From Methylococcales bacterium (GTDB taxonomy: Bacteria; Pseudomonadota; Gammaproteobacteria; Methylococcales; Methylomonadaceae): 38,688 nt of DNA. Positions 21,001 to 35,845 of this stretch are shown here, piece by piece (the first letter of the stretch is position 1; each line of letters begins with the position of its first letter). The notes beneath the pieces are model-generated. The model was not told where the DNA came from, made no database searches, and saw nothing but the letters and a program-made list of their open reading frames with translations. Where the stretch lies: contig JAGLUC010000345.1 in assembly GCA_023134955.1 (NCBI GenBank), positions 1 through 38,688 on the forward strand. The letters are read 5' to 3'. The position numbers were made by a program, and so were the translations under genes.

Positions 21001-24000
21001 TGATGTTATTACCGTGAATTCAGGCGTTACCGTCGATGCAGGCGGCAGTATTTTCTTTAATGCTGGTGACCACATTGTTGTACAGAGTGGTGCGACAATT
21101 GAGGCGAATAATGATATTACATTTAATACCGATGTAGCTAATCTGGATGCTGGCGGTGGTGATATTACCATTACAGGATTAGTTGATGCCATTGCTGGCA
21201 CAGTTACCTTGGCATCAAACAGTGATAACGATAGCTTTGTAGTCGATGGTGCTATTAAGGCTGGTGATCAGGTGCTGGTAACAATGGGCAATGGTGCGGA
21301 TACTTTTATAGTTACAGGTAGCATATTGTCAAATGCGCTACTTTCAGTAAATACCGGTGCTGGGAATGATGTTTTTACAGTTATCTCGGGTGGCTTACTG
21401 CAATCTAATAGTGGCAATGTCGAAATTAATACTGAAGCCGGGGAAGATACCCTGCTCGTTGCCGAAACAGGAACGCTAGCAGGAACGAGTATTGCTATTG
21501 CCAGTGGCGATAGTAATGACCAAATTACTATCGAAGGTATGCTAGATGCTGGAACCAGCACTATATTGATTGATGCGGGAGCGGGTGAGGATGTTGTTTT
21601 ATTAGATACGCCTATTTTGATTGGTCAAACCACTGTATTCGGTGGTGCTGACGATGATTTGATTACAGTAAACAGATTACCTACACAGGGTGCAACGGAT
21701 ACCTTAATGCTAGATGGTGGTGAAGGAAATGATGATCATATTGTCAACCTGACTGACCCAGCAACAGTTGCAGGGCTAGGTACTGAATATAGAATAGATG
21801 TCTTTGATACAGGGATAGGCGACACCGATACGCTTACCGTTAATGGCACAGCATTAGCAGATAACATTCTGATGCGTGCGAGTGAAAAACAGAAAGTAGA
21901 TGGTGGAGTAGCTTTTGTTGCTGCGTTACATAACGATGATCCAACCATTGCCGTTGAGCGGATTAATTACGACAAGGGGCTCGAAGAACTAATCGTTGAA
22001 ACTGGAGATGGTGATGATAATGTTAGTCTTGATGATAACTGGGTCACTACAACGGTTCGGGGTGGTGCAGGTCAGGATAATTTTCAGATTGGACAAATTT
22101 TTAAAACAGCACGTGATGCTGCAAATGCCAATATTGCATTAGAAGATGAGTTTGAGACAGTTTTATCAACGCGTGGGCATTTGAGTAACGGTGTTAGTTT
22201 TGAGACAACAATTGAAGGCGGTGATAATGAGGATACTTTCGTGGTATTCCGAAACTCTGCCAGACTGAATTTATTTGGTGATGACGGTGATGACTTGTTT
22301 GTTATTCGCTCATTTGCAGAAGAAGGTTCTAGTGATAGCGACATTGACCTTGGAGAAGGTGCAGATACCGTTGAATATGTTTCTAATGCGGCTGTAAATG
22401 TTATCGGTGGAAATGGTAATGATACTTTGCAGTTTATCGGTACTGAGTTTGGTGATGACTTTCTGATTACCAACAATAGTATCAGAGGTGCTGGGCGAAC
22501 TATTACTTACCAAGAAATAGAGAATCTTGAGATTGATGGTGCAGAAGGCGATGATAATTTCTTTGTTTTCTCAACCAATGAAAACGTTATAACCAAATTG
22601 TTTGGCGGCCTTGGTAATGACAGCTTCAGTATCGGAGGTGACAGTGGATCAGTTGTTGTCGCTGATAATGCGATAGAGGCGGAACAAGAAGGCCCACATA
22701 ATGTCGCGGGAATATTGGGTGCTTTAGAAATTTATGGTTTTTCTGGTAATGGTACAGCTGGTGGCTTAGGCGACCCAGTGATGCTACCTGGCGAAACTAA
22801 TGTTCTACCATCAGATGGTACAGTGCTTGGCTACCAAGTGGGTGATAACACTGACGATACCATGACTGTTTTAACAAGTGCATTGCAAACGGTAATTAGC
22901 AATGATGAGGACCTAGATGATTTACAAAGTTTAATAGGGCAAACGCTGGAAATCAGTAGTGGTGCTGGAATATCCCGTTTCTGGGCGATTACAGCAGTTG
23001 TTGATAATAATGGCACTAATACAACACTGAGTTTGCAAAATCCAACACTACCCGCAGAAGAGTGGGAAGACCCTACCATAGGTAGTGAATATGCCATTAC
23101 CCATTTATCAGCAAATTTCTTTGTTGATGAATCCTTGGCTTTAGATAAAGTGACTGTTTTTAATGATGGCAGCAGCTTGAATTCGAGTGGACTACTGACA
23201 GCAAATACACTCACTGGACTTGATATGGTCGCTGTGGGCATTAGCTATGGTGATTTTGAAGCCTTTGAGTTGCTATTAGGCACAGGCAATGATGATTTTA
23301 CGGTGGATTCTACTGCAGATGGTGTGATTACGGCGATACATGGTGGTGCGGGTGATGATCTGATTACCATTAATAGTCGAGGTGGTTTAGATAGTCGTGG
23401 ACTGGATGGTTCATTGGTCGTTTTTGGCGATACCACTCAAGATGGTAGCCGATATATAGACAGTAACACTGTGCTTTTACCTGGTTTTGCATACGGTTTT
23501 GATACGGTGGGAAACGACACTATTGATGCTTCATCTGCTGTCAAAATGGTTTCAATCTATGGCGGCGGCGGTAACGATATTATTATCGGTAGTCAGGCTG
23601 GAGATCATCTTGCAGGTGGTTCTGGTGATGATGTAATTACTGGCTTGGATGGTTTAGATCATATCTATGGTGATTCAGGTATTAATCTTGAGCTTGATAC
23701 GCGAGTACTCACGATAGTGACAGTGGACACGAGTTCGGAAGATGCCAGAGATGTATTATTAGCAGGTAGCGACATAATAGATGCTGGCGAGGGTGATGAT
23801 ATTATTTTTGGTGACCATGGGATTATCGACCAAACTGTGAATACAGTTAGAATCCTTAGCACATCAAATATAGAGCGGATTAGCACCACTGAAGAGACAG
23901 TTGGTTTAGATGATATTATTATCGGTGGTTTGGGTAATGATCGGATTCTAGCGGGTAATGCCGAAGATCAAGTTACTGATTTAATGGATAATAATATTAT

Positions 24001-27000
24001 CTTGGGCGATCATGGTTATATTGACTATGTATCAATAGATGGTGATCTGAGTGATATTGATGTAATAGAAAGTACTTCTACCACCGTAGGCGGCGGCAGT
24101 GATGGCATCCGCAGTGGTTTTGGCAACGACATTATTCTAGGCGGACGCTTTGGCGACCAAATCAACAGCCTGGGTGGTGACAACCTCATCCTTGGTGATA
24201 GCGGTAGTATTACCGCCGCCAATACTGGTACAGCACAACTGGCAGGACAATCCATCACTCTAGGGTTAATTACCAGCACCGAATTTGATGACGGCGGTGC
24301 CGACACCATCACCACCGGTGCAGGTCAAGACATCGTATTGGGCGGAGATGAAGGCGATATTATAGCTACAGGTGATGGCAGTGATATTGTACACGGTGAT
24401 AACGCGCGTCTGGATTACACCAGTGGTAGTTCAATTACACTTGATTTAATTGAAACGCTTGCTAATGATATAGGCGGTGAGGACATCATTCGAGGTGAAG
24501 GTGCCGATGATATATTAATTGGTGGTACTTTAGCTGACCGCATTGATGGTGGTAGCGAAGAAGATCTGATTTTTGGCGATAATGTTAATCTGGATCGTAG
24601 CGCTACTTATGGTAATTTTACTAATCTACGATTCCAGACATTGACGGGCTCCGAAATTTACGGCAGTGGTTTAAATGTGAATGGTTTTGTTGAAGGAGAA
24701 GTGTTGATTAGTAATACTGCACAACTTGATCCACAGGGCATGTCTGCATTTTGGTCTGATTTCCAGATTACATTGCTTGACCATGATGATGCTAGTAATA
24801 CAAACAAGTTCGGTGACGATTATATTGCCGGTGGCGCTAATGATGACCAAATATTTGGTCAGTTGGGTAATGATGTAATTCAGGGTGATGGCACTATTGA
24901 CCTGAATGTATCAGCGGCTCGGTTAGCAGCAGATGGAACGCTTAGTCTGAGTGCCTCGGTGGAAGATTTTGATCATTTTGATGAGTCAAACTTGGTCTTC
25001 TCTGTTGAAGGTAATGATGGTGATGACTATATCGAAGGTAATGGCGGTGATGATGTTATTTTTGGTAACCTTGGTCAAGATGACATTATAGGTGGCAGCT
25101 CGACGTTATTTAGCCTTGATAGCCAAGGTCACCGTCCAGATGGAGCCGATTTGCTTTTTGGTGGTGCAGGTGTTGATGTTATTCGAAATAATTTGGGTGA
25201 TATTAGCCATGCTGTCGATTCCGACATGATTCTGGGTGATAATGGCAATATCTATCGACTAGTCACTGGCGGCACGAGTAATGCTTATCTTGGTTTTACT
25301 TATGATAACTATGGTGGAGAAAAAATCATTGTGCGTGCGGCAGAACTTATTGACTACACAGCAGGTGAAGCTCACCTGGATGTCAATGGACTGAGTTCGG
25401 ATATCGGTGCTGCAGATGAGATTCATGGTGAGTCGGGCGATGATTTTATTTATGGCATGGTCGGTAATGATGTTTTATTCGGTGACGGCCAGGATGATGA
25501 CCTAATCGGTGGCTATGGCCATGACTGGATATCAGGTGGTACTGGCGATGATGGCATACTTGGTGATGATGGTTTGATTTATACCAGTAGAAATGGTGTA
25601 ACAGGAGAGTCTTTATATGGTATAGGCGCTGTTGTAGAACAAACAATCAGTACACCAGGAGATTTTCAGCAAGCTACTATTAATGTTTTAGGCGAGCTTA
25701 AAAAGACTGTTAATTTAACACCTTTTAATGTTGACCTAAATACAGCACTTCAAGACCACTTATATGATGCTCAGTTTGCTGATGACATAATCTATGGCGG
25801 CTGGGGAAATGATTTTTTACATGGTGGTTCTGGTGATGACGCTATTTCCGGAGCAGAAGCATTAAATAGTTTCTACTCTGTACCGAGTAATTTAGGTGAT
25901 GAACTAGGCTATAACAGTTTAATAGTGGGGGAATTTGTCGCTTATGACGAATTTAACCCATTACTTAAAATTAATAACTTCTTCCTTAATTTTAATGCTG
26001 GTGAAGGTGAGGTAGTGCTTGGGGAAGCAGTCCTAACTGATGGTAATGACCGGATATTCGGTGACCTGGGTAACGACTGGCTAGTCGGGGGAACAGGAAG
26101 AGATCATCTATATGGAGGTTATGGTGATGACCTACTCAATGCCGATGATAATCTTGACAGCAATGGCGGTCTCAATGATGTTCCAGATGGCCCTCAAGCC
26201 TCTTACGAGGATTTGGCATTTGGTGGCGCTGGTCGCGATATATTAATAGCCAATACAGGTGGCGACCGCTTGATAGATTGGGCAGGGGAATTTAACAGCT
26301 TTGTTGTACCTTTTGCACCCTTTGGTTTAGGGACAGTCAGCCGGGCTTTGCAACCACAAATTGCAGACTACCTCTATGATTTATCAGCAAGTGATGGTGC
26401 GGATTCGACTCGTGCTGCTGATACTGGTACAAATATTGCCAGAAATGGGGAGCCAGATGGTGAGCTAGGTCTCGTTACACAGCAAGATACTGATTGGCAA
26501 GATCAGACTGGAGCACCTGCTGATCCACAACCTGGTAATGTGGCAGGCGGTGCGCGTGACGTATTGCGAAGTGCTACTTCAAATCTATTGGCACAAGAAG
26601 CGGCCATAATAATATCTGCAGAAGAGTTAAGTCAGATACAATTAACAGAGATTGTTAATACGGCTAAATCATCTTGGCAAGAATCAAGATTATTAAATCA
26701 AGCATCACTTTCCAAATTAGATAAAGTGGAGATAAGAATTGCTGATCTAAATGGTTTGAAACTAGGTCATACAGCGGGTAATAGCATCTATATAGATATT
26801 AATGCAGCGGGTCACGGCTGGTTTATAGATACCACGCCAGATATTAACGAGGAATACCAACGCAATGGCGAAGAATATAGCCTGACAGCACTAAATAATA
26901 CTGCGGCTAGTGATAATATGGATTTACTCACAGTAGTTAAACATGAGTTAGGACATATTTTGGGCTATGCACATGATAGTAATGGTGGTTTAATGGAAGA

Positions 27001-27418
27001 TACCTTACAGGTCGGTGAGCGAAAACTAATAGTACCTGAGGCGCTAAACTTCACAAGTAATGTAAAATCGGATAGTGCTACAACGCTTTCAAAAATAGTG
27101 GAAAAAGCAACATTTAGTGCTAAAAAATTACTTGGCATTAGCACACAACAAGGAAATATTGATTTTCAATATTTTGATGAGCTATTTGGTGTCTTTAATA
27201 ATCAGGAGGTCACTATAGAACCTGAGGATAGCAAAGAAGACTTTTTGATCTTTAGTAATGATAAAAACCAGGATGGTAAAGAAAACCATGCAACCCAGTA
27301 TCAACTAAGAAAAGGGCATGAATCTAATGGCTCAGATCAACGAGCAACGGAAAATAAAGCTGAAGGAAGAGAAACGGAACTCACTGTTTTAATTGACTGG
27401 AGTGACGGAGAAGACTAG
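11..27418 (+). CDS. Giant secreted-type repeat protein (at least 9135 aa, probably 5'-partial): beta-solenoid-like repeats, RTX-type GGxGxD Ca-binding block, C-terminal HExxHxxGxxH zincin-like module
   Basis: A 27.4 kb stop-free frame in AT-rich DNA cannot arise by chance. Codons 2-10 (aat ttt aat) are also open, and the first residues ([17 protein letters not shown]) already sit inside a repeat that recurs near aa 7500 ([18 protein letters not shown]), so the TTG at 11 is probably not the true start. There are dozens of GGxGxD nonapeptide-like motifs between roughly 21590 and 26290. [11 protein letters not shown] is at 26942..26974. The stop codon TAG is at 27416..27418. Confidence 0.9.
   Translation: [9135 protein letters not shown]
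2630..2940 (+). repeat. Copy A of a ~310 bp near-identical dispersed direct repeat inside the giant ORF
   Basis: It aligns base-for-base with 6269..6579 at a constant offset of 3639 bp (1213 codons). I count about 16 mismatches, 7 of them in a patch at 2701..2720. A perfect 114 bp run covers 2747..2860. Confidence 0.85.
6269..6579 (+). repeat. Copy B of the ~310 bp near-identical dispersed direct repeat inside the giant ORF
   Basis: See copy A. Immediately outside the tract, identity falls to the level of the other paralogous modules; for example 2590..2629 versus 6229..6268 differ heavily. Confidence 0.85.
11051..11476 (+). repeat. In-frame tandem duplication, 2 x 213 bp (71 codons), inside the giant ORF
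   Basis: Unit 1 (11051..11263) and unit 2 (11264..11476) encode [35 protein letters not shown]....YDM..QDFS..DLWEQIN twice. The first ~180 bp of each unit are roughly 85-90% identical, with perfect runs such as ttaactaaaaatgtaacgacagtagaagtgct. Confidence 0.85.
21590..26290 (+). repeat. RTX-type (hemolysin-type calcium-binding, GGxGxD) nonapeptide repeat-coding block of the giant ORF, interrupted by non-RTX inserts
   Basis: Examples are [40 protein letters not shown] (about 23561..23680), [49 protein letters not shown] (about 25429..25575), and [20 protein letters not shown] (ending about 26280). Looser G.G.D.(F/L).(V/I) units run from about 21000. Boundaries are approximate. Confidence 0.8.
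26942..26974 (+). other. Zincin metalloprotease signature [11 protein letters not shown] (HExxHxxGxxH) in the C-terminal module of the giant protein
   Basis: The in-frame codons cat gag tta gga cat att ttg ggc tat gca cat were read directly. The next residue is D, and a Met (GGLMED) follows 7 residues after the third His, a candidate Met-turn. Confidence 0.7.
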
Positions 27419-27497: not shown

Positions 27498-28283
27498 ATG
27501 AGCACACAACTATTAATCTACGAACGCGCAGAACCCATCAGTAAACAGAAACATAGCAACTGGTCAGTAAAAACAGGTGGTAGTTACGATTTTACAAAAA
27601 ATATTAATTCAGCGCCATTAACTGCAGTAGAATTTCCTAATGCATCTACGGAATACAGTATTGTTTTTGCTGGCAATGATGATGCTGTTATGCCAGCAGT
27701 TATATTAGGCTTACGAGACCAGGAAAACCTGTATTTATCAGAAGATGGAAAATGGAACAGTAAATATATCCCTGCTTTCATTCGTCGGTATCCATTTGTA
27801 TTCTCCAGTAGTAATGAAGCTAAACAATTTACCCTCTGCATAGATGAAGAGTTTTTGGGCTGCAACCAAGACGGTATAGGTGAACGACTGTTTGATACCG
27901 AGGGAGAACAGACCCAATACTTAAAAACAGTTTTAAATTTTTCCAGTGAATACCAAGGTCAGTTCAACCGAACTCAATTATTCTGTAAAAAATTAAAGGA
28001 ACTGGATTTGTTAGAGCCTATGCAAGCACAGTTCACCCTGCCAACAGGGGAAAAAATGAACTTAGGCGGGTTTCAGGCGGTCAGTCGTGAGCGCTTAAAA
28101 AAACTAAGCAATGAACAGTTAGGAGAACTAGCTAAAACGGATGAGCTAGAATTGATTTATCTGCACTTGCAATCGATGAGAAATTTCAATGCTATGGTGG
28201 CTCGGGTTCCTGAAAGTGATGCGAGCTCAAATGTTGCAAAAGACTCTAAGAAAGAAAAACTATCTAAAAAAGATATGCATTAA
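27498..28283 (+). CDS. SapC-family protein
   Basis: The 261 aa ORF has an N-terminal half (LLIYERAEPISKQKH..., APLTAVEFPNASTEYSIVF, YIPAFIRRYPFVF) that matches my recollection of the conserved SapC-family core (YxPAxxRRYPF). It starts 79 bp after the giant ORF on the same strand, with no convincing terminator between them. Confidence 0.75.
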   Translation: MSTQLLIYERAEPISKQKHSNWSVKTGGSYDFTKNINSAPLTAVEFPNASTEYSIVFAGNDDAVMPAVILGLRDQENLYLSEDGKWNSKYIPAFIRRYPFVFSSSNEAKQFTLCIDEEFLGCNQDGIGERLFDTEGEQTQYLKTVLNFSSEYQGQFNRTQLFCKKLKELDLLEPMQAQFTLPTGEKMNLGGFQAVSRERLKKLSNEQLGELAKTDELELIYLHLQSMRNFNAMVARVPESDASSNVAKDSKKEKLSKKDMH

Positions 28284-28649
28284 ACTAGCAAAGCCTTCCT
28301 TCTATACTCTTTACGTTTAAGAATATCCCATTCTAGTATGTAGATTATTGTGATGAGCTAGGTGTAAAGCAGCAGGAATAGTAATCTATTTCAATGCTTT
28401 ACTTGGCAACTGCTCCTCGGTAATTGCTCTTGCATTATTCTGCTACGCACCATCCATGGCATTAAACAACGCTCATCGCGATAAGATGCGTGCTAGAGTG
28501 GGGTATTTTTGAGCGTGAAGAGTTATATGTATCAACTTTGTGAAATTGTTCTATAGATATTAACAAGCTTGATACTCTGCATTCGCTCAAATACCACTTG
28601 TCTGGTAGTCTATAGCCTCTTATCGTGATTTTATTAATAATCAATTTAC
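28284..28649 (+). promoter_or_regulatory. 366 bp AT-rich intergenic region, probable promoter/regulatory region of the four-gene operon
   Basis: This is the only sizeable non-coding gap between the giant ORF and 35845. A candidate sigma70-like pair is TTGTCT (28598..28603), a 17 nt spacer, then TATCGT (28621..28626). A hairpin GTAAAGCA(23 nt)TGCTTTAC sits at 28364..28402 with no T-tract. All of this is motif-by-eye only. Confidence 0.3.
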
Positions 28650-30803
28650 ATGAGTAATGTTTTTTCCAAAATTATGGATGAAAATCGTAATGAATATAGG
28701 GTTCCTGTTGAACCAGGAACTACGGTTATTATTCATAGTGGTGACAGGGAAATTGTCGGGACAATTGAGGATAAGTCCGAGGGTGGACTAGGTTTAAGAA
28801 TACCAGAAGCTTTTAAGCAGTATATAGATCAAAATACTGTTGTGACCATGACTTACAGTATGCCTTATGGACTAGTCAGCCATCAAGCGCAGGTCTGTTG
28901 GAGTAACTCAGATAAAGCAGGTGAATTAACGATAGGAACAAGGTTTCTTGAGGCTGAGCCTGGCTTTCAAACAGACTATCAAAAATTATGGAAAGACTTT
29001 ATTGATGCGGAGAAGCTGGAAGATGTGGCTCGTTTTTGGTTGAGTCTTCAATCGGCAATGATTAGTGGGGTTACCCGTGCGGTTGTGGTGTTAGGTGAGC
29101 CAGGGGGTGAAGTATTTTCTCCAGTTGCATTTTGGCCGGAAGCACAAACCGGAGTAATTGGGCTAACCGAAGTTGCAGAACTGGCTTTACAAGAAAAACG
29201 TGGGGTGTTGAGAGATGAGGGACAATACAACAAAGACCTGAATATTCGAGTTTGTTATATTGGTTTCCCACTAATGCTGGATGAGAAACTGTGTGGTGTG
29301 GTGGCTATAGAAATAGTTGTTCGTCCAGAACCTTTGATGCGTGCAGTTATGCGTCAGCTACAATGGGGGACGGCATGGATAGAGTTAATTATTCGCCGTA
29401 TTGATGGCAAAAAATACACCCCTGAAAATCAGCAATTAGTTACCGTTCTGGAACTGATAGCGACGAGCTTGGAACATGATAGTTTTCAGGCGGCGGCAAC
29501 CAGCGTTGCCACAGAACTAGCAACTATTTTGGAATGTGAGAGAGTAAGCATTGGTTTTTTGGTAGGGAAGTATATGCAAGTTGAAATCTTGTCTCATAGT
29601 ACCGATTTTACGAAAAAATCAAAATTGGTTCAGAGTCTTGGCTTGGCGATGGATGAAGCAATGGATCAACAAACTTCTCTTGTTTTTCCTGCGCGTGAGG
29701 ATGACACGGTAAAAATTCTAAAGTGTCATGAAAAATTATTACAGGAACAAGGTAGTAGTGGTGTTTGTACAATTCCTTTGTGTAATAAAGGCAAGGTATT
29801 TGGTGCTTTAACAATGGAGCGTTCATCGGGCGATTTATTTGCTAAAGATACTGTCGATTTATGTGAAACCATCGCCTCTCTTGTTGGTCCTATTTTAGAG
29901 GCAAAACGAAGGCAAGATTTGTGGTTAGTCATTAAGTTTGGCTTGTCGATAAAAGAATTTATATTTAAGCTCACAGGGCCGGATCATGCAGGGTTTAAAG
30001 TTATAAGTGCAATTTTTGCGGTAGCAATTTTATTTTTTATCTTTGCAACAGGAAGTTTTCGAGTTGCTGCAGATGCCTATCTTGAAGGCTCTATTCAGAG
30101 GGTTATTGTTACACCGTTTAATGGTTATATCAGTGAAGCCTATGTCCGTGCCGGTGATGTGGTAAAAAAAGGCTCACCTTTAGTAAAACTGGATGATAAT
30201 GACTTATTGTTGGAGAGAGCTAAATGGAAAGGGCAGAAAGAACAGTATAGAAAAGAATATCGTGAGGCACTGGGTAAAGCAGAACGCAGTAAAGTCAGTG
30301 TGTTAAAAGCGCGACTTCGGCAAGTGGATGCACAGCTTGCGATGATGGATGCTCAATTATCTCGTATACGGGTTAATGCACCTTTTGATGGCATTATTGT
30401 TTCGGGTGATTTAAGTCAATCTTTGGGTTCCCCTTCTCAGCGAGGGGATGTGTTGTTTGAAATTGCACCATTAGATGCTTATCGAGTGATATTGGAAGTG
30501 GATGAGCGAGATATTTCAACGATTAATGTAGGTCAGTCAGGCGAGTTAGTTTTAACGGGTCATAGTGATAGAGTTATTGCTTTTAAGGTTAAAAGTATTA
30601 CACCTGTTTCTGAGGTTAAAGAAGGACGTAATTATTTTCGAGTAGAAGCAAAATTGAATACTCAAATTGATGATTTACGCCCAGGGATGAAAGGTGTAGG
30701 TAAGATTATAATCGGTAAACGTAATTTAATCTGGATATGGAGCCGACCTCTCCTTGACTGGTTGCGATTGAGTTTGTGGACTTGGTGGCCACAAGGCTTA
30801 TAG
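28650..30803 (+). CDS. PilZ domain + two GAF-like domains + single TM + HlyD-family membrane fusion protein (periplasmic adaptor)
   Basis: The PilZ signature is RNEYR (RxxxR, 28686..28700) plus DKSEGG (DxSxxG, 28770..28787). Residues ~125-420 resemble two GAF-like modules. A hydrophobic helix FKVISAIFAVAILFFIFATGSF covers aa 449-470. The C-terminal ~240 aa have MFP organisation: a lipoyl-like half (VRAGDVVKKGSPLVKLD), a short coiled coil, NAPFDGII, then beta-barrel segments. Confidence 0.85.
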   Translation: MSNVFSKIMDENRNEYRVPVEPGTTVIIHSGDREIVGTIEDKSEGGLGLRIPEAFKQYIDQNTVVTMTYSMPYGLVSHQAQVCWSNSDKAGELTIGTRFLEAEPGFQTDYQKLWKDFIDAEKLEDVARFWLSLQSAMISGVTRAVVVLGEPGGEVFSPVAFWPEAQTGVIGLTEVAELALQEKRGVLRDEGQYNKDLNIRVCYIGFPLMLDEKLCGVVAIEIVVRPEPLMRAVMRQLQWGTAWIELIIRRIDGKKYTPENQQLVTVLELIATSLEHDSFQAAATSVATELATILECERVSIGFLVGKYMQVEILSHSTDFTKKSKLVQSLGLAMDEAMDQQTSLVFPAREDDTVKILKCHEKLLQEQGSSGVCTIPLCNKGKVFGALTMERSSGDLFAKDTVDLCETIASLVGPILEAKRRQDLWLVIKFGLSIKEFIFKLTGPDHAGFKVISAIFAVAILFFIFATGSFRVAADAYLEGSIQRVIVTPFNGYISEAYVRAGDVVKKGSPLVKLDDNDLLLERAKWKGQKEQYRKEYREALGKAERSKVSVLKARLRQVDAQLAMMDAQLSRIRVNAPFDGIIVSGDLSQSLGSPSQRGDVLFEIAPLDAYRVILEVDERDISTINVGQSGELVLTGHSDRVIAFKVKSITPVSEVKEGRNYFRVEAKLNTQIDDLRPGMKGVGKIIIGKRNLIWIWSRPLLDWLRLSLWTWWPQGL

Positions 30804-30818
30804 CCTAGGCAACAAGTT

Positions 30819-32966
30819 ATGGCTGAGTCTATGTTTAGCTCTTCTTGGTATCGTATTGCTGGGTTAAAACCTAGGTTAAGAGCCCATGTGCAGATTTCTA
30901 GGCATCATTATCGTGGTCAGTTGTGGTATGTATTACAGGATAGGGCTAACAGTCAAAACCATCGGTTTTCACCACAGGTATACTATGTTTTATCATTGCT
31001 GGATGGTAAACGAAACTTTCAGACTATCTGGAATCTAGCATTGGAGCAGCTAGGGGATGATGCGCCTAGCCAAGATGAAATGATTAAATTGTTGGGACAA
31101 CTTCATAGCAGTGATTTATTGTTGTGTGATGTCCCTCCCGATACACTGGAACTATTTCATAGGTTTGAAAAAAAACAATGGGGAAAATGGAAGCAAAAGA
31201 TTTTCAGTCCTTTGTCAATCAGACTGCCTTTATGGGATCCAGATGCTTTTCTTGAACGCTGGCTGTTTTTAGTTTTACCTTTTGCAGGTTGGTTAGGTAA
31301 GCTGATATGGGGTGTTGTAATAGGCACAGCTATTGTATTGGTTGCATCCAATTGGGTTGATCTGTCAGAGGGTGTGGCTGATCGTGTTTTAGCTCCCAGC
31401 AACTTGTTGTTACTATTCTTTATTTATCCTGTAGTAAAATTTTTACATGAACTCGGACATGCTTTTTCAACCAAAGTATGGGGCGGAGAAGTGCATGAAA
31501 TGGGGATAATGTTATTAGTATTTATGCCCGTTCCTTATGTAGATGCCTCTAGTGCATGGTCTTTTCGAGATAGAAAAAAAAGAGCTATTGTCGGTGCTGC
31601 GGGTATGGGGGTTGAACTATTTCTAGCCGCTTTAGCTTTGTTTGTCTGGTTAAATGTTGAGCAAGGCATGGTAAGCGCTATAGCTTATAATATTATGCTG
31701 GTTGGAGGTGTCTCCACGTTATTTTTTAATGGCAATCCACTACTACGTTTTGACGGTTATTATATTTTCTCAGATCTAATAGAAATCCCCAATCTCTCAA
31801 GTCGAGCCAACAATTATATTGGCTACTTGTTTCAACGCTATCTTTTCTCTGTACAACAATTAAATTCTCCTGCATCTTGCACTGGAGAGCAAGTGTGGTT
31901 TGTCTGTTACGGTTTGGCATCTTTTGTATATAGGATGCTGATTAGCTTTACGATTATTCTTTTTGTCGCGGGAAAATTCTTTTTTATAGGTATTGTTTTT
32001 GCGCTATGGGCTGTTTTTTCGATGGTTGTGTTACCCTTGTCGAAACAGGTTAAATTTATTTTTACCAGCCCTGTAATACAGCGCCAGCGTTTAAGAGCAA
32101 TTACAGTCAGCTTTAGCCTGTTAGCTGCTTTTTTATGTTTTCTATTTCTATTTCCAGTGTCTTTTAGCAACTATACCGAAGGTGTGGTATGGCTACCAGA
32201 GCAGGCAGAAGTGCGTGCTCAGACAGAGGGCTTTGTAGTAAATATTCATGTTCAAACCTACTCAATGGTCAAGAAAGGAGATGTTTTACTGGATATGGAG
32301 GATCCCTTGCTTAATTCTAGACAGCTTGTTCTACGCTATCGAATTGACGAATTAAAGGCTCAATATAAAGCTGCTTGGGGTAGGGAGCAAGTGCAAGCAC
32401 AAATTCTGAGGGAACAAATTGAGGTGATTAAAGTAGAGTTAGCTCAATTGAATGAACGTATTAATGACTTAACTTTACGAAGTCGGTCTAGTGGTTTATT
32501 TGTTGTTTCCCAAGCAAATGATTTGATAGGAAGCTTTTTAAAAAAGGGCGACTTGGCAGCTTATATTGTCAATTTTCCTGTTACCACTATTCGTGCTGTT
32601 GTGACGCAAGATAATATAGGTTTAGTTAGAGAATTTACAAAAAATGTGGAAGTTCGATTAGTTGATGATATGAAAAATTTATATGTTGCTAAAGTCGTTA
32701 GAGTGGTACCCGCAGCATCAGATAGATTGCCTAGTCCCGCTCTGGGATATAAAGGTGGCGGCTTAATACCAACTGATCCGTCATCTGGAGAAGGTGACAA
32801 AGCTTTTGAACCAGTATTTCATATTGAACTGGAATTTCCTGCTGAGGCTAATGTCAGAAACCTGGGAGGGCGAGCGTATGTGCGTTTTGATTTTGGCACT
32901 GAGCCACTTGCTTGGCAGTGGTATAGATTAGCTAGGCAGCTATTTTTAAGACAATTTAGTGTTTAG
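30819..32966 (+). CDS. Peptidase M50 (site-2 protease family) membrane core with PqqD/RRE-like N-terminal domain and HlyD-like C-terminal domain
   Basis: HELGH is at 31446..31460 inside a hydrophobic segment. The second S2P motif NPLLRFDG (NxxPxxxxDG) is at 31734..31757. Multiple hydrophobic helices cover aa ~150-450. The C-terminal ~250 aa are MFP-like (VKKGDVLLDMEDP, coiled coil LRYRIDELKAQYKAA...QLNERINDL). The start lies 15 bp after the preceding stop. Confidence 0.85.
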   Translation: MAESMFSSSWYRIAGLKPRLRAHVQISRHHYRGQLWYVLQDRANSQNHRFSPQVYYVLSLLDGKRNFQTIWNLALEQLGDDAPSQDEMIKLLGQLHSSDLLLCDVPPDTLELFHRFEKKQWGKWKQKIFSPLSIRLPLWDPDAFLERWLFLVLPFAGWLGKLIWGVVIGTAIVLVASNWVDLSEGVADRVLAPSNLLLLFFIYPVVKFLHELGHAFSTKVWGGEVHEMGIMLLVFMPVPYVDASSAWSFRDRKKRAIVGAAGMGVELFLAALALFVWLNVEQGMVSAIAYNIMLVGGVSTLFFNGNPLLRFDGYYIFSDLIEIPNLSSRANNYIGYLFQRYLFSVQQLNSPASCTGEQVWFVCYGLASFVYRMLISFTIILFVAGKFFFIGIVFALWAVFSMVVLPLSKQVKFIFTSPVIQRQRLRAITVSFSLLAAFLCFLFLFPVSFSNYTEGVVWLPEQAEVRAQTEGFVVNIHVQTYSMVKKGDVLLDMEDPLLNSRQLVLRYRIDELKAQYKAAWGREQVQAQILREQIEVIKVELAQLNERINDLTLRSRSSGLFVVSQANDLIGSFLKKGDLAAYIVNFPVTTIRAVVTQDNIGLVREFTKNVEVRLVDDMKNLYVAKVVRVVPAASDRLPSPALGYKGGGLIPTDPSSGEGDKAFEPVFHIELEFPAEANVRNLGGRAYVRFDFGTEPLAWQWYRLARQLFLRQFSV

Positions 32967-32992
32967 ATTAAAACGATAGTTATGGATTTTTA

Positions 32993-34981
32993 ATGGCAGC
33001 CCATTCAAATTTTAAGCCTGGTATTGTTGAAGGATTATATCCTGAGCGGTCTGTGCTAAAAAAAGCTTATCTTGACCAGAAATTGGCTAAAATAGAGGGT
33101 TTTTTCACTCGCTTATTTAAGTATAACCATCGTTCACTTAGCTTTATAGTCCAGTTAGTGAATCAATATTCTGATGAGCTTGAGTTATTGCAAGATCACG
33201 CATTAGACGAACGAATTGAGCATTTAAAATCGAATTTAATCCTGCATGGGCTAGAGGATTTATTGATTATCGAAGCATTTGCCCTGATTAAAGAGGTGGC
33301 TGGAAGAAAGCTGGGAATGCGGCATTATGATGTGCAGCTTATAGGCGGCTGGATTCTTATTAAAGGAATGATCGCTGAAATGGAGACGGGTGAAGGTAAA
33401 ACATTAGTAGCAACGTTGGCGGCTTGTACTGCAGCAATCTCGGGTATTCCTGTCCATGTCATTACGGTGAATGATTATTTGGTTAAACGTGATGCCACTT
33501 TAATGGAGCCAGTTTATAAGGCTTTTGGCTTGAGTGTTGGAATTATTTCTGAAGATATGGATTTAGCTACTCGTCAAATAGCTTATGCTTGCGATATAAC
33601 TTATTGTAGTAATAAACAAGTTACTTTTGATTACCTTAAAGATAAGTTGGTGTTGGGGAGAAAAGGTAGTAACTTTCATTTACAACTCGAAAAGCTTTAT
33701 GCAAAGAAAGCAGCGAAACAGGCGCAGTTACACTTAAGAGGCTTATGTTTTGCAATTGTGGATGAAGCCGATAGTGTTTTTATAGATGAATCAAGAACAC
33801 CATTGATTCTTTCTCGAGAAACTAATTCTCTTGACGAGTTGTATGTTTATCAGCAGGCACTTGAAATTGCAGGGCAATTGAAAGAAGCAAGTGATTTTAT
33901 AATAGATCAGCGAAATCAACATATACAATTAACAGGATCTGGTATTAATCGCATTAAGCAAATGGTTGAGTCACTATCAGGTATTTGGTCGGCGGAAAGG
34001 CGCAGTCGTGAATTAATTGTTCAAGCATTGTCGGCACTATATTTGTTTTTGAAGGATGTTAATTACCTTGTTAAAGATGGAAAAGTATTAATTATTGATG
34101 AATTTACTGGACGTGTGATGGCTGATCGTTCGTGGGAGCGAGGCTTGCATCAGCTAATAGAAACTAAAGAAGGCTGTGAAATGAGTAGGCAAAAAGAAAC
34201 ACTTTGTCGAATTAGCTATCAATCTTTTTTTCAACGCTATCTACATCTTGCGGGGATGACGGGAACAGGAAAAGAAGTGGCGAGAGAATTATTCTCTGTT
34301 TATCGGCAGCCTGTTATTAAGGTGCCTACCAATAAGCAAGGCAAACGGAAACAATTCTGTGCGCGTTATTTCACGACTGCATCACAAAAATGGACGGCTA
34401 TAGTTGAACGTATTGTAGAAATTCATCAACAAGGGCGACCTATTTTAATAGGTAGCCGTTCGGTTGAAGCATCAGAGCATTTAGGGCAATTGTTGACTAA
34501 GAAAAGATTGCCTCATCAATTATTAAATGCTCGACAGGATGCTGACGAAGCAGAAATCATTAAAATGGCGGGTAGTCTAGGGGCGATTACTGTGGCAACG
34601 AATATGGCAGGAAGAGGGACAGATATTATTTTAGCCCCTAGTGTTAATGAAATTGGCGGCTTGCATGTAATTGTCAGTGAATGTCATGAGTCTAGGCGTA
34701 TAGATAGACAGTTATTTGGTCGATGTGGTCGGCAAGGCAATGAGGGCAGTTATGAAATGTTTTTATCATTTGATGATGAAATAGTAACCAAATATACACC
34801 TCTTATCGCGTATGAATTGGCTAAAAAAATGTGTGGATATGGTTATCAAAAAATAGCCGCAGCAGTTTTTTACTTGGCGCAAACACGGGCAGAAAAATAC
34901 CATGCAGCCATCCGTAGAGATTTGCTAAAAATGGATGAGAACTTACAAAACCTGTTAGCATTTTCTGGAAAACCTGAATAG
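32993..34981 (+). CDS. SecA-like ATPase, motor-only paralog (NBD1-PPXD-NBD2; lacks helical wing, two-helix finger and C-terminal tail)
   Basis: MRHYDVQLIGG...EMETGEGKTLVATL (Walker A, 33389..33403) and VHVITVNDYLVKRDA are near-identical in pattern to E. coli SecA. The DEAD box is at 33761..33772. The PPXD-like segment is LVKDGKVLIIDEFTGRVMADRSWERGLHQLIETKEG, followed by MTGTGKE, TNMAGRGTDI and GRCGRQG. The protein ends at 662 aa, within the stretch that aligns to the first long scaffold helix of SecA (E. coli SecA is 901 aa). Confidence 0.9.
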   Translation: MAAHSNFKPGIVEGLYPERSVLKKAYLDQKLAKIEGFFTRLFKYNHRSLSFIVQLVNQYSDELELLQDHALDERIEHLKSNLILHGLEDLLIIEAFALIKEVAGRKLGMRHYDVQLIGGWILIKGMIAEMETGEGKTLVATLAACTAAISGIPVHVITVNDYLVKRDATLMEPVYKAFGLSVGIISEDMDLATRQIAYACDITYCSNKQVTFDYLKDKLVLGRKGSNFHLQLEKLYAKKAAKQAQLHLRGLCFAIVDEADSVFIDESRTPLILSRETNSLDELYVYQQALEIAGQLKEASDFIIDQRNQHIQLTGSGINRIKQMVESLSGIWSAERRSRELIVQALSALYLFLKDVNYLVKDGKVLIIDEFTGRVMADRSWERGLHQLIETKEGCEMSRQKETLCRISYQSFFQRYLHLAGMTGTGKEVARELFSVYRQPVIKVPTNKQGKRKQFCARYFTTASQKWTAIVERIVEIHQQGRPILIGSRSVEASEHLGQLLTKKRLPHQLLNARQDADEAEIIKMAGSLGAITVATNMAGRGTDIILAPSVNEIGGLHVIVSECHESRRIDRQLFGRCGRQGNEGSYEMFLSFDDEIVTKYTPLIAYELAKKMCGYGYQKIAAAVFYLAQTRAEKYHAAIRRDLLKMDENLQNLLAFSGKPE

Positions 34982-34990
34982 GAAATTAGG

Positions 34991-35845
34991 ATGTGTCGAA
35001 TAATAATAAAAAAATCTGTTATCAGCCTATTGCTGGTGCTTTCTAATACAGTATTTGCTGGCAATGGGAAGGTCTTAGATTGTGTGCTGGAGCCGTCAAT
35101 GGTTGTTGAGCTGAGCAGTCAAGTTCGTGGTGTAATTGAGAATATTTATGTTGAACGTACTGATGTTGTTAAAAATGGGCAGCTAGTTGCTAATTTAATG
35201 TCGGGAGTGGAGAAGGTCAGTGTTCAATTGGCTATGGATAGATCGAAAATGGTTGTAGATATAAAATCTAGAAAAGCTGAACAAAAATTTAGAAAGCATA
35301 CCTTCGAGCAGGTAAAAGAGCTTTACAGGAAAAAGCTTGCCTCACAGCGTGAATATGAAGACGCTAAAACCTCAAGTATTGTTGCAGACATTGAACTGGA
35401 AAAAGCTATAGAACTAAAGTACCTGGCAGGTATGGAGTTGAAACGTACTCAAGAGATACTTAAACTTCGTTCTATGCACAGCATGATTGATGGCGTAGTA
35501 GTAGACGTGATGAAGTCACCAGGTGAATTTGTTGAGGAACAACCAGTCATGAAAATCGCTCAAATTGATCCCCTTTTTGTTGAAGTAATCGTACCTGAAA
35601 CATTAATGGGCAGGGTTAAGGTGGGAAAACAATTAAAGGTTAATATTGAAATACCAATAGCAGCTAGCCATTTGGCAACAGTGAGTGCAGTCGATCAAAT
35701 TATTGATGCTACAAGTGGTACCTTTGGGGTACGGCTGATACTACCTAATCCAGATAATAAAATTCATGCGGGTCAACGTTGCCAAGTTGTTTTGGTTGAT
35801 GAACCCCTGAAACTCAACTTAAATAAATATAAAAATAAAAGGTAA
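34991..35845 (+). CDS. HlyD/RND-type periplasmic adaptor (MFP) with cleavable Sec signal peptide
   Basis: The N-terminus is MCRIIIKKSVISLLLVLSNTVFA|GN, with a positive n-region, a hydrophobic core and an AxA-like site but no lipobox. The rest has lipoyl-like halves (VKNGQLVANL ... SMIDGVVVDV), a coiled-coil hairpin, and a barrel segment PLFVEVIVPE...VKVGKQLKV. The start lies 9 bp after the SecA-like stop, with AGGAAATTAGG just upstream of the ATG. Confidence 0.8.
   Translation: MCRIIIKKSVISLLLVLSNTVFAGNGKVLDCVLEPSMVVELSSQVRGVIENIYVERTDVVKNGQLVANLMSGVEKVSVQLAMDRSKMVVDIKSRKAEQKFRKHTFEQVKELYRKKLASQREYEDAKTSSIVADIELEKAIELKYLAGMELKRTQEILKLRSMHSMIDGVVVDVMKSPGEFVEEQPVMKIAQIDPLFVEVIVPETLMGRVKVGKQLKVNIEIPIAASHLATVSAVDQIIDATSGTFGVRLILPNPDNKIHAGQRCQVVLVDEPLKLNLNKYKNKR

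Follow-up and report, generated by a model that had tools for sequence, protein, structure and literature searches.

Organization of the locus

The DNA analysed here is a stretch of 38,688 nucleotides from a Methylococcales bacterium (GenBank assembly GCA_023134955.1, contig JAGLUC010000345.1). It is termed the window below, and all coordinates are positions within it. Its subject is a four-gene operon (28650-35845) encoding three proteins with membrane-fusion protein (MFP) domains, one of them fused to an M50-type intramembrane protease, together with a short paralogue of SecA. The operon lies 3′ to a gene for a giant protein, which is the candidate cargo of the four. All four genes are on the + strand, at 28650-30803 (717 aa), 30819-32966 (715 aa), 32993-34981 (662 aa) and 34991-35845 (284 aa), and are separated by spacers of 15, 26 and 9 bp. 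A preliminary description of this stretch had listed four co-directional open reading frames (ORFs) with these gaps, and the coordinates match exactly. Its domain assignments for the four proteins are all backed by profile searches against Pfam and NCBIfam, including the three proteins with MFP domains of the kind canonical in type I secretion systems (T1SS). The features are as follows.

11-27418, + strand: giant gene, candidate cargo (ORF of 9,135 aa in the window; gene call of 9,285 aa on the source contig).
22538-26239, + strand: region of RTX-type GGxGxD calcium-binding repeats of the giant (HemolysinCabind, RTX_toxin, motif positions).
26453-27055, + strand: conserved C-terminal domain of the giant, about 200 aa, with a metzincin-type HExxHxxGxxH motif at 26942-26974.
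27498-28283, + strand: SapC-family gene (Pfam SapC, 1.1e-73).
28650-30803, + strand: PilZ-GAF-TM-MFP gene, with PilZ at 28680-28961, GAF at 29487-29888, a transmembrane (TM) segment at 29988-30044 and MFP at 30099-30689.
30819-32966, + strand: RRE(PqqD-like)-M50-MFP gene, with the fold of a RiPP recognition element (RRE; RiPP, ribosomally synthesized and post-translationally modified peptide) at 30888-31109, the TM region at 31242-32150 and MFP at 32154-32963.
31446-31460, 31728-31757 and 32304-32465, + strand: HExxH motif, NxNPLLRFDG motif and alpha-hairpin, respectively, of the M50-MFP protein (motif search and AlphaFold2 (AF2) model).
32993-34981, + strand: short SecA paralogue gene (NBD1, PPXD, NBD2 and the first part of the scaffold helix), with Walker A at 33380-33403.
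34991-35845, + strand: small periplasmic MFP gene (RND_mfp profile), with a signal-like hydrophobic segment at 34991-35059.

The short SecA paralogue

The third gene of the operon encodes a SecA reduced to its motor. It matches the Pfam models SecA_DEAD (3.9e-99), SecA_PP_bind (6.9e-30) and P-loop_SecA (6.1e-52), with no match to SecA_SW, and can be aligned to SecA over residues ∼13-609 only, the C-terminal third being absent. The AF2 model (pLDDT 76) comprises NBD1, PPXD and NBD2 followed by a single 28-residue helix. Foldseek matches the model to B. subtilis SecA (TMq 0.71, 38% identity), and the artificial truncation SecA-N68 is also among the matches. The NBD1-PPXD-NBD2 fold is shared with canonical SecA and with the E. 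coli SecA-N68 truncation (PDB 5k9t), as are intact Walker A (GEGKT), DEAD (VDEADS) and arginine-finger (NMAGRGTDI) motifs. In contrast to canonical SecA the protein ends naturally after the first part of the scaffold helix, and both the model and the alignment lack the wing domain, the two-helix finger and the C-terminal linker and tail.

The protein fits neither a housekeeping SecA nor an accessory SecA2. It has less than the full domain architecture of the former and scores 607.8 bits against a cutoff of 800 for the NCBIfam SecA model TIGR00963. It also falls under every cutoff of the SecA2 models (for example TIGR03714, 500 against 930), and no SecY2 or Asp genes are present in the list of window ORFs. 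Instead it belongs to a family of its own, and the databases contain thousands of relatives equal to it in length. The window protein shares 52-79% identity with members from different phyla, compared with 31-38% for canonical SecAs.

A conserved N-terminal motif, RPGIxxGxYPER (window 32993-33050, aa 1-19), is specific to this family and is found neither in canonical SecA nor in SecA-N68. G14, Y16 and P17 are invariant within it, and P9 and G10 are nearly so. Because the model predicts the motif to be disordered, it suggests a docking peptide.

The RRE-M50-MFP protein

The second gene of the operon encodes a three-part protein. In the AF2 model (pLDDT 81) an N-terminal RRE-like unit is followed by a polytopic region and a C-terminal MFP. 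Residues 24-97 are arranged as beta-beta-beta-alpha-alpha-alpha, which is the topology of a PqqD-like RRE; the protein itself has no match to Pfam PqqD at E ≤ 0.01, and 12 of 32 relatives do match. The polytopic region contains the hallmarks of a site-2 protease (S2P; Peptidase M50), with the HExxH motif, the NxNPLLRFDG motif and an S2P-type beta-hairpin (aa 225-243) that follows the HExxH helix. The residues of these two motifs, H210, E211, H214, N304, P307, D312 and G313 are invariant in 32/32 sequences. The C-terminus is recognized as an HlyD region by profile search, with an alpha-hairpin at aa 496-549, and the best Foldseek matches for the model are MexA, MacA and AcrA (6e-11).

The preliminary description had called this protein an M50-MFP fusion. 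The MFP part and the S2P motifs bear this out; the Pfam Peptidase_M50 score of the window protein itself (1.8e-5, 24.6 bits) lies under the cutoff of 27.2, and 31/32 relatives match that model. The closest named family is the NCBIfam daptide_HExxH (NF041824), matched at 4.6e-43 over aa 18-405 with a score of 147.8 bits against an equivalog cutoff of 300. The length of the M50-MFP family is nearly constant at 714-716 aa, and it has thousands of relatives in the databases.

The two other MFPs

The first gene of the operon has profile matches to PilZ (1.3e-9), GAF (3.4e-11) and HlyD_3/HlyD_D23 (1e-20), with a single TM segment at aa 447-465. The RxxxR and DxSxxG motifs by which PilZ domains bind cyclic di-GMP (c-di-GMP) are intact by motif search. 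Among the loci examined the PilZ domain is limited to the clade of the window, being found on its own contig and in one 60%-identical relative (L008, 488-2620). The GAF region is matched in 81 of 87 loci searched, and the other detected GAF-MFP orthologues have no PilZ. Methylococcus sp. EFPC2 has a separate guanylate-cyclase/PilZ gene ∼2 kb downstream of its copy of the operon (L003, 15130-16227). The fourth gene encodes a small MFP that matches NCBIfam RND_mfp (110.4 bits, cutoff 94.9) and begins with a signal-like hydrophobic segment.

Conservation of the module and relation to earlier work

With each species represented by a single genome, relatives of the 715-aa M50-MFP protein were detected in at least 527 genomes. 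Neighbourhoods were compared in 83 loci, made up of 80 of these genomes and the loci of three distant SecA-like relatives. The SecA-like gene directly follows the M50-MFP gene in 64 of the 70 loci with enough sequence, and is nearby in three more. The GAF-MFP gene directly precedes the M50-MFP gene in 69/75 loci with enough flank, and the small MFP is present in 58/63 with enough downstream sequence. A gene order shared by 83 independent loci is far more than chance would produce. The hosts are Gamma-, Beta-, Alpha- and Deltaproteobacteria, Nitrospira, Methylomirabilia, Omnitrophota, Planctomycetota, Myxococcota and Acidobacteriota, with cultured strains among them. The neighbourhoods of the three distant relatives (Methylococcus sp. 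EFPC2, a Tectomicrobia metagenome-assembled genome (MAG) and a metagenome contig) contain the same genes beside proteins of 3,032, 7,631 and 9,117-18,821 aa, and that of the metagenome contig has a TolC-family gene within the cluster. The Tectomicrobia locus (L005, 3691-6938) has no GAF-MFP gene, and its M50-MFP gene is separated from an RHS/cadherin giant by five small ORFs (73-108 aa); it may represent a variant whose substrates or accessory proteins are different.

No ABC exporter accompanies the module. Among the 103 window ORFs of 60 aa or more, delimited from stop to stop, there is no match to an ABC ATPase, and no HlyB-type ABC gene is found in the sequenced flanks (up to about 9-10 kb) of the 83 module loci. 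Any ABC match at all is confined to 5/83 loci. The one of at least 450 aa is an importer ATPase that had been used as a query, lengthened upstream by ORF calling, and the rest are ORFs of 204-371 aa. The ABC matches near related loci proved to be small, soluble ATPase subunits whose Walker A motif is N-terminal, and not exporters of the HlyB type. The quartet suspected in the preliminary description is thus a conserved unit without an ABC partner.

That description had also taken the composition to be undescribed, which does not hold. Kamneva, Poudel and Ward (PLoS One 2015; PMC4452313) reported ‘secondary SecA_DEAD domain proteins’ without wing and scaffold that coexist with canonical SecA. 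Their locus encodes a GAF+HlyD protein, a weak-Peptidase_M50+HlyD protein and a HlyD/biotin-lipoyl protein, in some cases joined by an OEP gene but never by an ABC gene, and M. extorquens AM1 META1p2402-2399 is one example. From in silico analysis they proposed that the SecA_DEAD protein is the ATPase and the M50 protein the membrane pore. The preliminary description arrived at this same model, which is plausible but not original; its individual steps, with a motor feeding unfolded polypeptide, the M50 protein as conduit and the three MFPs as tunnel, are hypothetical. The window has the same four protein types, including a wing-less SecA_DEAD protein with a polytopic M50-HlyD protein encoded 26 bp upstream, a GAF+HlyD protein and a separate HlyD protein, again with no ABC gene in the locus; it differs in the additional N-terminal PilZ domain of the GAF-MFP. 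That the SecA-like clade is secondary to canonical SecA, as the preliminary description supposed, agrees with the published phylogeny of other members (PMC4452313). The window locus is accordingly a new copy of a module known from sequence analysis alone. New here are the assignment of LEPR-XLL giants as cargo, the RRE domain, the leader-peptidase analogy, the gene order in 83 loci and the clade-specific PilZ fusion. The 2015 paper contains none of the terms giant, substrate (as cargo), PqqD, SapC, PilZ or adhesin, DUF3467 and LEPR-XLL not being among the terms searched for there.

The giant protein and the LEPR-XLL leader

The ORF at 11-27418 starts at the edge of the window. Since the gene is called at 9,285 aa on the source contig (ENA ERZ23498525 scaffold_274) and the window contains 9,135 aa, some 150 N-terminal residues lie upstream. 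The N-terminal part matches the NCBIfam tandem repeat-containing filamentous protein LktA_tand_53 (100 bits, cutoff 50). The ORF contains long, near-identical internal repeats, and the block ‘...GGNAGSVYEYLGQDGFDPTD...DLSGVDYSDLDYWKEVSETQLIPQGLNVTGSDSVAVGGIVVVNDVRA...’ is present twice. Towards the C-terminus are RTX repeats (Pfam HemolysinCabind 1.7e-13, NCBIfam RTX_toxin 3e-19); the model for the T1SS C-terminal target domain has no match in the giant. The C-terminal domain has a weak match to Peptidase_M10 (7.5e-5), and the same ∼200-aa domain with the metzincin motif ends module-adjacent ORFs in 17 other loci. Among giants encoded 5′ of the module, as here, it is frequent at the C-terminus. 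It may be an active protease, and might process the giant itself.

Module-linked giants have other recurrent C-terminal features. Many carry a Trp motif, ‘IDW[S/G/N]’ or VNW/IHW/IAW, about 10-100 residues from the C-terminus. In the window it is at ∼27392-27400 (giant aa 9128-9130), and it is also seen in L003, L012, L028, L041, L047, L056, L057, L064, L067, L069 and L080. It might be a second recognition or anchoring element. The giants of L042, L072, L075 and L084 (Desulfuromonas, Desulfobulbus, Desulfobacterales and delta-proteobacterial MAGs) end in a basic ‘RRR(F/V)xxWxxG’ and not in the metzincin/IDW tail.

Giants are a regular neighbour of the module. Counting as giant any ORF of at least 1,500 aa, or of at least 700 aa where cut by the end of the locus, a giant or an ORF with a LEPR-XLL leader is present in 27 of the 31 well-flanked loci (at least 6 kb on both sides). 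Where giants are downstream or divergent, with the N-terminus visible, all start with a basic stretch followed by (F/L)ExLEPRxLLSAD. This motif opens a neighbouring ORF in 19 loci, compared with 0 in the shuffled control, and 6/8 tested score above the cutoff of the NCBIfam model LEPR-8K (NF012209, ‘LEPR-XLL’ domain). A hydrophobic h-region, such as Sec signal peptides typically have, is lacking in the leaders. The cargo-like genes about which the preliminary description asked would be those of LEPR-XLL giants.

The window's giant probably bears such a leader itself, as far as can be told from its homologues. The best of these are 2,400-7,800 aa in length, and an N-terminal LEPRxLL is found in 31 of 70 matches of at least 1,500 aa; many of the remaining long homologues look fragmentary. 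The best homologue (P0241, 4,835 aa) has LEHLEPRQLL at residue 31, and residue 32 of the window ORF aligns with its residue 97.

The association was also examined in reverse, with 80 JGI metagenome loci chosen by the leader alone, 49 of which have at least 2 kb upstream. Core module genes are present in 16 of the 49, and SapC, DUF3467 or OEP genes in 11 more; seven have small soluble ABC ATPase subunits only, and in 15 nothing recognizable is found. In these 15 the module may lie beyond the 3′ end of the giant gene, which is its place in the window. No HlyB-type ABC gene lies upstream of the 69 LEPR-XLL gene starts with at least 1 kb of upstream sequence. Because loci selected by the leader carry module genes too, the association of module and giant is two-way.

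LEPR-XLL giants have been described elsewhere. In Chlorochromatium, giants with LEPRxLL of 20,647 and 36,806 aa have sapC and tolC as neighbouring genes and are co-expressed with a secA gained by horizontal transfer (bioRxiv 10.64898/2026.03.19.712371). A Vibrio genome paper describes a LEPR-XLL protein of ∼8,000 aa with C-terminal RTX and serralysin domains. Neither report ties the giants to the module.

SapC and DUF3467

The SapC protein of the window has no TM segment and no signal sequence. SapC is encoded in 11/83 module loci and DUF3467 in 29/83, with one or the other in 38/83; they are not simple alternatives, because both are present in L012 and L041. In the metagenome loci selected by the leader, SapC is often directly 5′ of the giant (L093, L094, L133, L139, L140, L149, L152, L157, L167). 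It therefore appears to belong with the cargo gene and not with the module of four, and is a putative cargo-linked accessory protein. DUF3467 (∼105 aa) is absent from the window. It has an invariant YAN..N...REE..FG...R...AAKR...YE..G pattern, with a mean column identity of 47% over its whole length. It is encoded in L003 (5465-5776) and 28 other loci, in many cases with the giant on one side and the GAF-MFP gene on the other. A SecB-like nature of DUF3467 is conjectural. Searches of PDB sequences with SapC and with the DUF3467 profile found no relatives.

A proposed route of export

On balance we favour the view that the module is a dedicated machine for the export and maturation of LEPR-XLL giant surface proteins, here the ∼9,285-aa filamentous protein with its RTX repeats and metzincin tail. 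This view, which we hold with modest confidence, builds on the domain architectures, the intact catalytic and ATPase motifs, the gene order, the two-way link with giants, the lack of an ABC gene and the occasional TolC-family gene within the cluster. The cargo would be marked by its leader, a basic N-terminus ending in (F/L)ExLEPRxLLSAD, which is seen in neighbouring and homologous giants and probably present in that of the window. The cytoplasmic RRE predicted in the M50-MFP protein would bind this leader, since RREs recognize the leaders of RiPPs. The SecA-derived motor, having shed the SecY-engaging two-helix finger, the wing and the tail and kept NBD1, PPXD and NBD2, would then push the unfolded chain, N-terminus first, through a TM assembly of the M50-MFP and GAF-MFP proteins. 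At the cytoplasmic face the M50 site may cut off the leader, in the manner of the C39 domain of CvaB/PCAT exporters. The three paralogous MFPs would form a periplasmic duct to a TolC-family channel, encoded within the cluster in some genomes and presumably elsewhere in this one. More than one MFP in a single pump has a precedent in TriABC. The cytoplasmic GAF domain, joined in the clade of the window by PilZ and c-di-GMP, may gate the machine.

The LEPR-XLL cargo signal was missed in the preliminary description. This signal points, by analogy, to export coupled to a leader peptidase as in the CvaAB/PCAT type, and not to the HlyBD type. The resemblance to the CvaAB-TolC and PCAT exporters of colicin V and bacteriocins is a functional one, in which the cargo would bear an N-terminal leader, the exporter would contain its own leader peptidase, and an MFP would connect with a TolC-family channel. 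In contrast to those systems the energizer here would be a separate SecA-derived DEAD motor and not an ABC nucleotide-binding domain, the protease is an RRE-linked M50 metalloprotease and not C39, there are three different MFPs, and the cargo is thousands of residues long. With the HlyBD-TolC and LapBCE T1SS the module shares giant RTX surface proteins and alpha-hairpin MFPs, and would share the TolC-family partner and, for Lap, control by c-di-GMP. It differs from them in having no ABC, LapD or LapG protein and no match to the T1SS C-terminal target domain, while the conserved signal is N-terminal (LEPR-XLL).

The RRE-M50 leader peptidases of RiPP pathways (daptide, NF041824; YydH/LiaK, NF058609) likewise have a PqqD-like RRE followed by an HExxH intramembrane metalloprotease. 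The module protein differs in its sub-equivalog score, its fused C-terminal MFP and the lack of RiPP precursor or tailoring genes nearby. Finally, a preprint by West-Roberts et al. (10.1101/2023.11.21.568195) describes SecA_DEAD domains inside giants of Omnitrophota and Actinobacteria, for which self-export was proposed. There too SecA DEAD and preprotein-binding domains without wing and scaffold are linked to giant proteins, but the motor is within the giant polypeptide, whereas here it is a separate 662-aa protein encoded in an operon with MFPs and an M50 protease.

Whether the module amounts to a distinct type of secretion system is a step further, and we put this forward tentatively, at a little short of an even chance. 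Such a type, spread across many Gram-negative phyla, would have its own leader signal, a SecA motor stripped of its SecY-binding parts in place of the ABC protein, an RRE-M50 peptidase, and three MFPs leading to TolC. It would also account for the export of LEPR-XLL giants such as the 20,000-36,000-aa proteins of Chlorochromatium.

Several observations weigh against a dedicated exporter. An OEP/TolC-family gene inside the cluster agrees with a tripartite-type duct in 7/83 loci, but most of the 83 have none. The window has none either among its 103 ORFs; the preliminary description had reported neither an ABC nor a TolC ORF, and both absences stand. Protein-conducting channels formed by S2P-type proteases are not known. 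RTX repeats near the C-terminus, as in the giant of the window, are a hallmark of ABC-driven T1SS substrates, and an ABC/MFP pair could be present elsewhere in the genome, including the 10.9 kb 5′ of the giant on the source contig. The N-terminus of the giant is outside the window, and no giant is beside the module in 4/31 well-flanked loci. In exponentially growing M. extorquens AM1 the GAF gene alone of the operon is expressed (PMC4452313). Our literature search found no experimental work on any member of the module and no follow-up among the papers citing the 2015 study.

Alternative explanations

The main rival to the export machine is that the module processes or regulates the giant, acting in its maturation, retention or release by a logic like that of LapD and LapG, while a conventional ABC-driven T1SS encoded elsewhere carries out the export. 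We consider this unlikely; it is kept alive by the RTX repeats and by the parts of the genome beyond view, notably the 10.9 kb 5′ of the giant. It would fit the RTX repeats followed by a C-terminal domain, as is typical of T1SS substrates, the joining of a c-di-GMP/GAF sensor on a membrane protein with a protease, and the usual position of the TolC gene outside the cluster. Yet no HlyB-type ABC gene occurs within ∼10 kb in the 83 loci or 5′ of the 69 leader starts, and the giant has no T1SS C-terminal target-domain match. Pfam and NCBIfam scans of the window proteins found no LapD (HAMP-GGDEF-EAL) or LapG (C93) domains. A translocation ATPase bearing a PPXD, three MFPs and sometimes an OEP are moreover hard to explain by regulation alone.

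A two-step route is less probable again. Here the short SecA would target the giant to the housekeeping SecYEG, and the M50, MFP and TolC components would complete its exit. The strong homology with SecA (TMq 0.71 and 38% identity with the B. subtilis protein) and the retention of the PPXD are in its favour, but the parts that engage SecY, namely the two-helix finger, the wing and the greater part of the scaffold, are missing from the short SecA, and the leaders lack the hydrophobic h-region of Sec signal peptides. Truncations of E. coli SecA like SecA-N68 are not known to be competent for translocation.

We give rather less weight still to a system for the maturation and export of small, RiPP-like peptides, of which the giant would be a mere frequent neighbour and DUF3467 or the small ORFs the true substrates. 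The daptide RRE-M50 protease is the closest named family, the Tectomicrobia locus has five small upstream ORFs and no GAF-MFP, and DUF3467 is encoded in 29/83 loci. Against this, the link between the module and LEPR-XLL giants holds in both directions, and no RiPP-modifying enzymes recur in the module neighbourhoods. DUF3467 is conserved over its full length, unlike precursor peptides, and is missing from the window.

That the SecA-like gene is simply the housekeeping secA, with unrelated efflux adaptors as neighbours, can be dismissed almost completely: the family is annotated publicly as ‘preprotein translocase subunit SecA’, but the window protein is below every NCBIfam SecA/SecA2 cutoff (608 against 800 bits) and lacks the C-terminal third, it is more similar to family members from different phyla (52-79%) than to canonical SecAs (31-38%), the clade coexists with canonical SecA (PMC4452313), and the gene order with its neighbours is fixed.

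Other features of the window

On the 3′ side of the operon are housekeeping genes, for an inositol monophosphatase family protein, rpe (on the opposite strand) and phosphoglucomutase. The gap between the SapC gene and the operon (28284-28649, 366 bp) is AT-rich. Searches with Rfam found no RNA family in the window, this gap included, and a scan for promoters and terminators gave a signal no different from that of shuffled sequence, with no outstanding promoter signal in the gap. A role in anti-phage defence was rejected because PADLOC gave no match for any of the five proteins tested.

Significance

How bacterial proteins of 5,000-36,000 residues are exported is poorly understood, and ABC-driven type I secretion is usually assumed. 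At least 527 genomes at species level carry the module, whose one earlier description, in silico, named no cargo. The LEPR-XLL leader and the module form a testable pair of signal and machine, from which a cleavage event and a leader-binding domain are predicted, and there are cultured carriers in M. extorquens AM1, Bradyrhizobium sp. DOA9, Marinobacterium mangrovicola DSM 27697 and Jannaschia seohaensis DSM 25227. If the export machine is as proposed, it would contain the first SecA-family motor to operate outside the Sec translocon in Gram-negative bacteria, on a secretion route to which annotation pipelines at present give the wrong labels ‘SecA’ and ‘efflux adaptor’.

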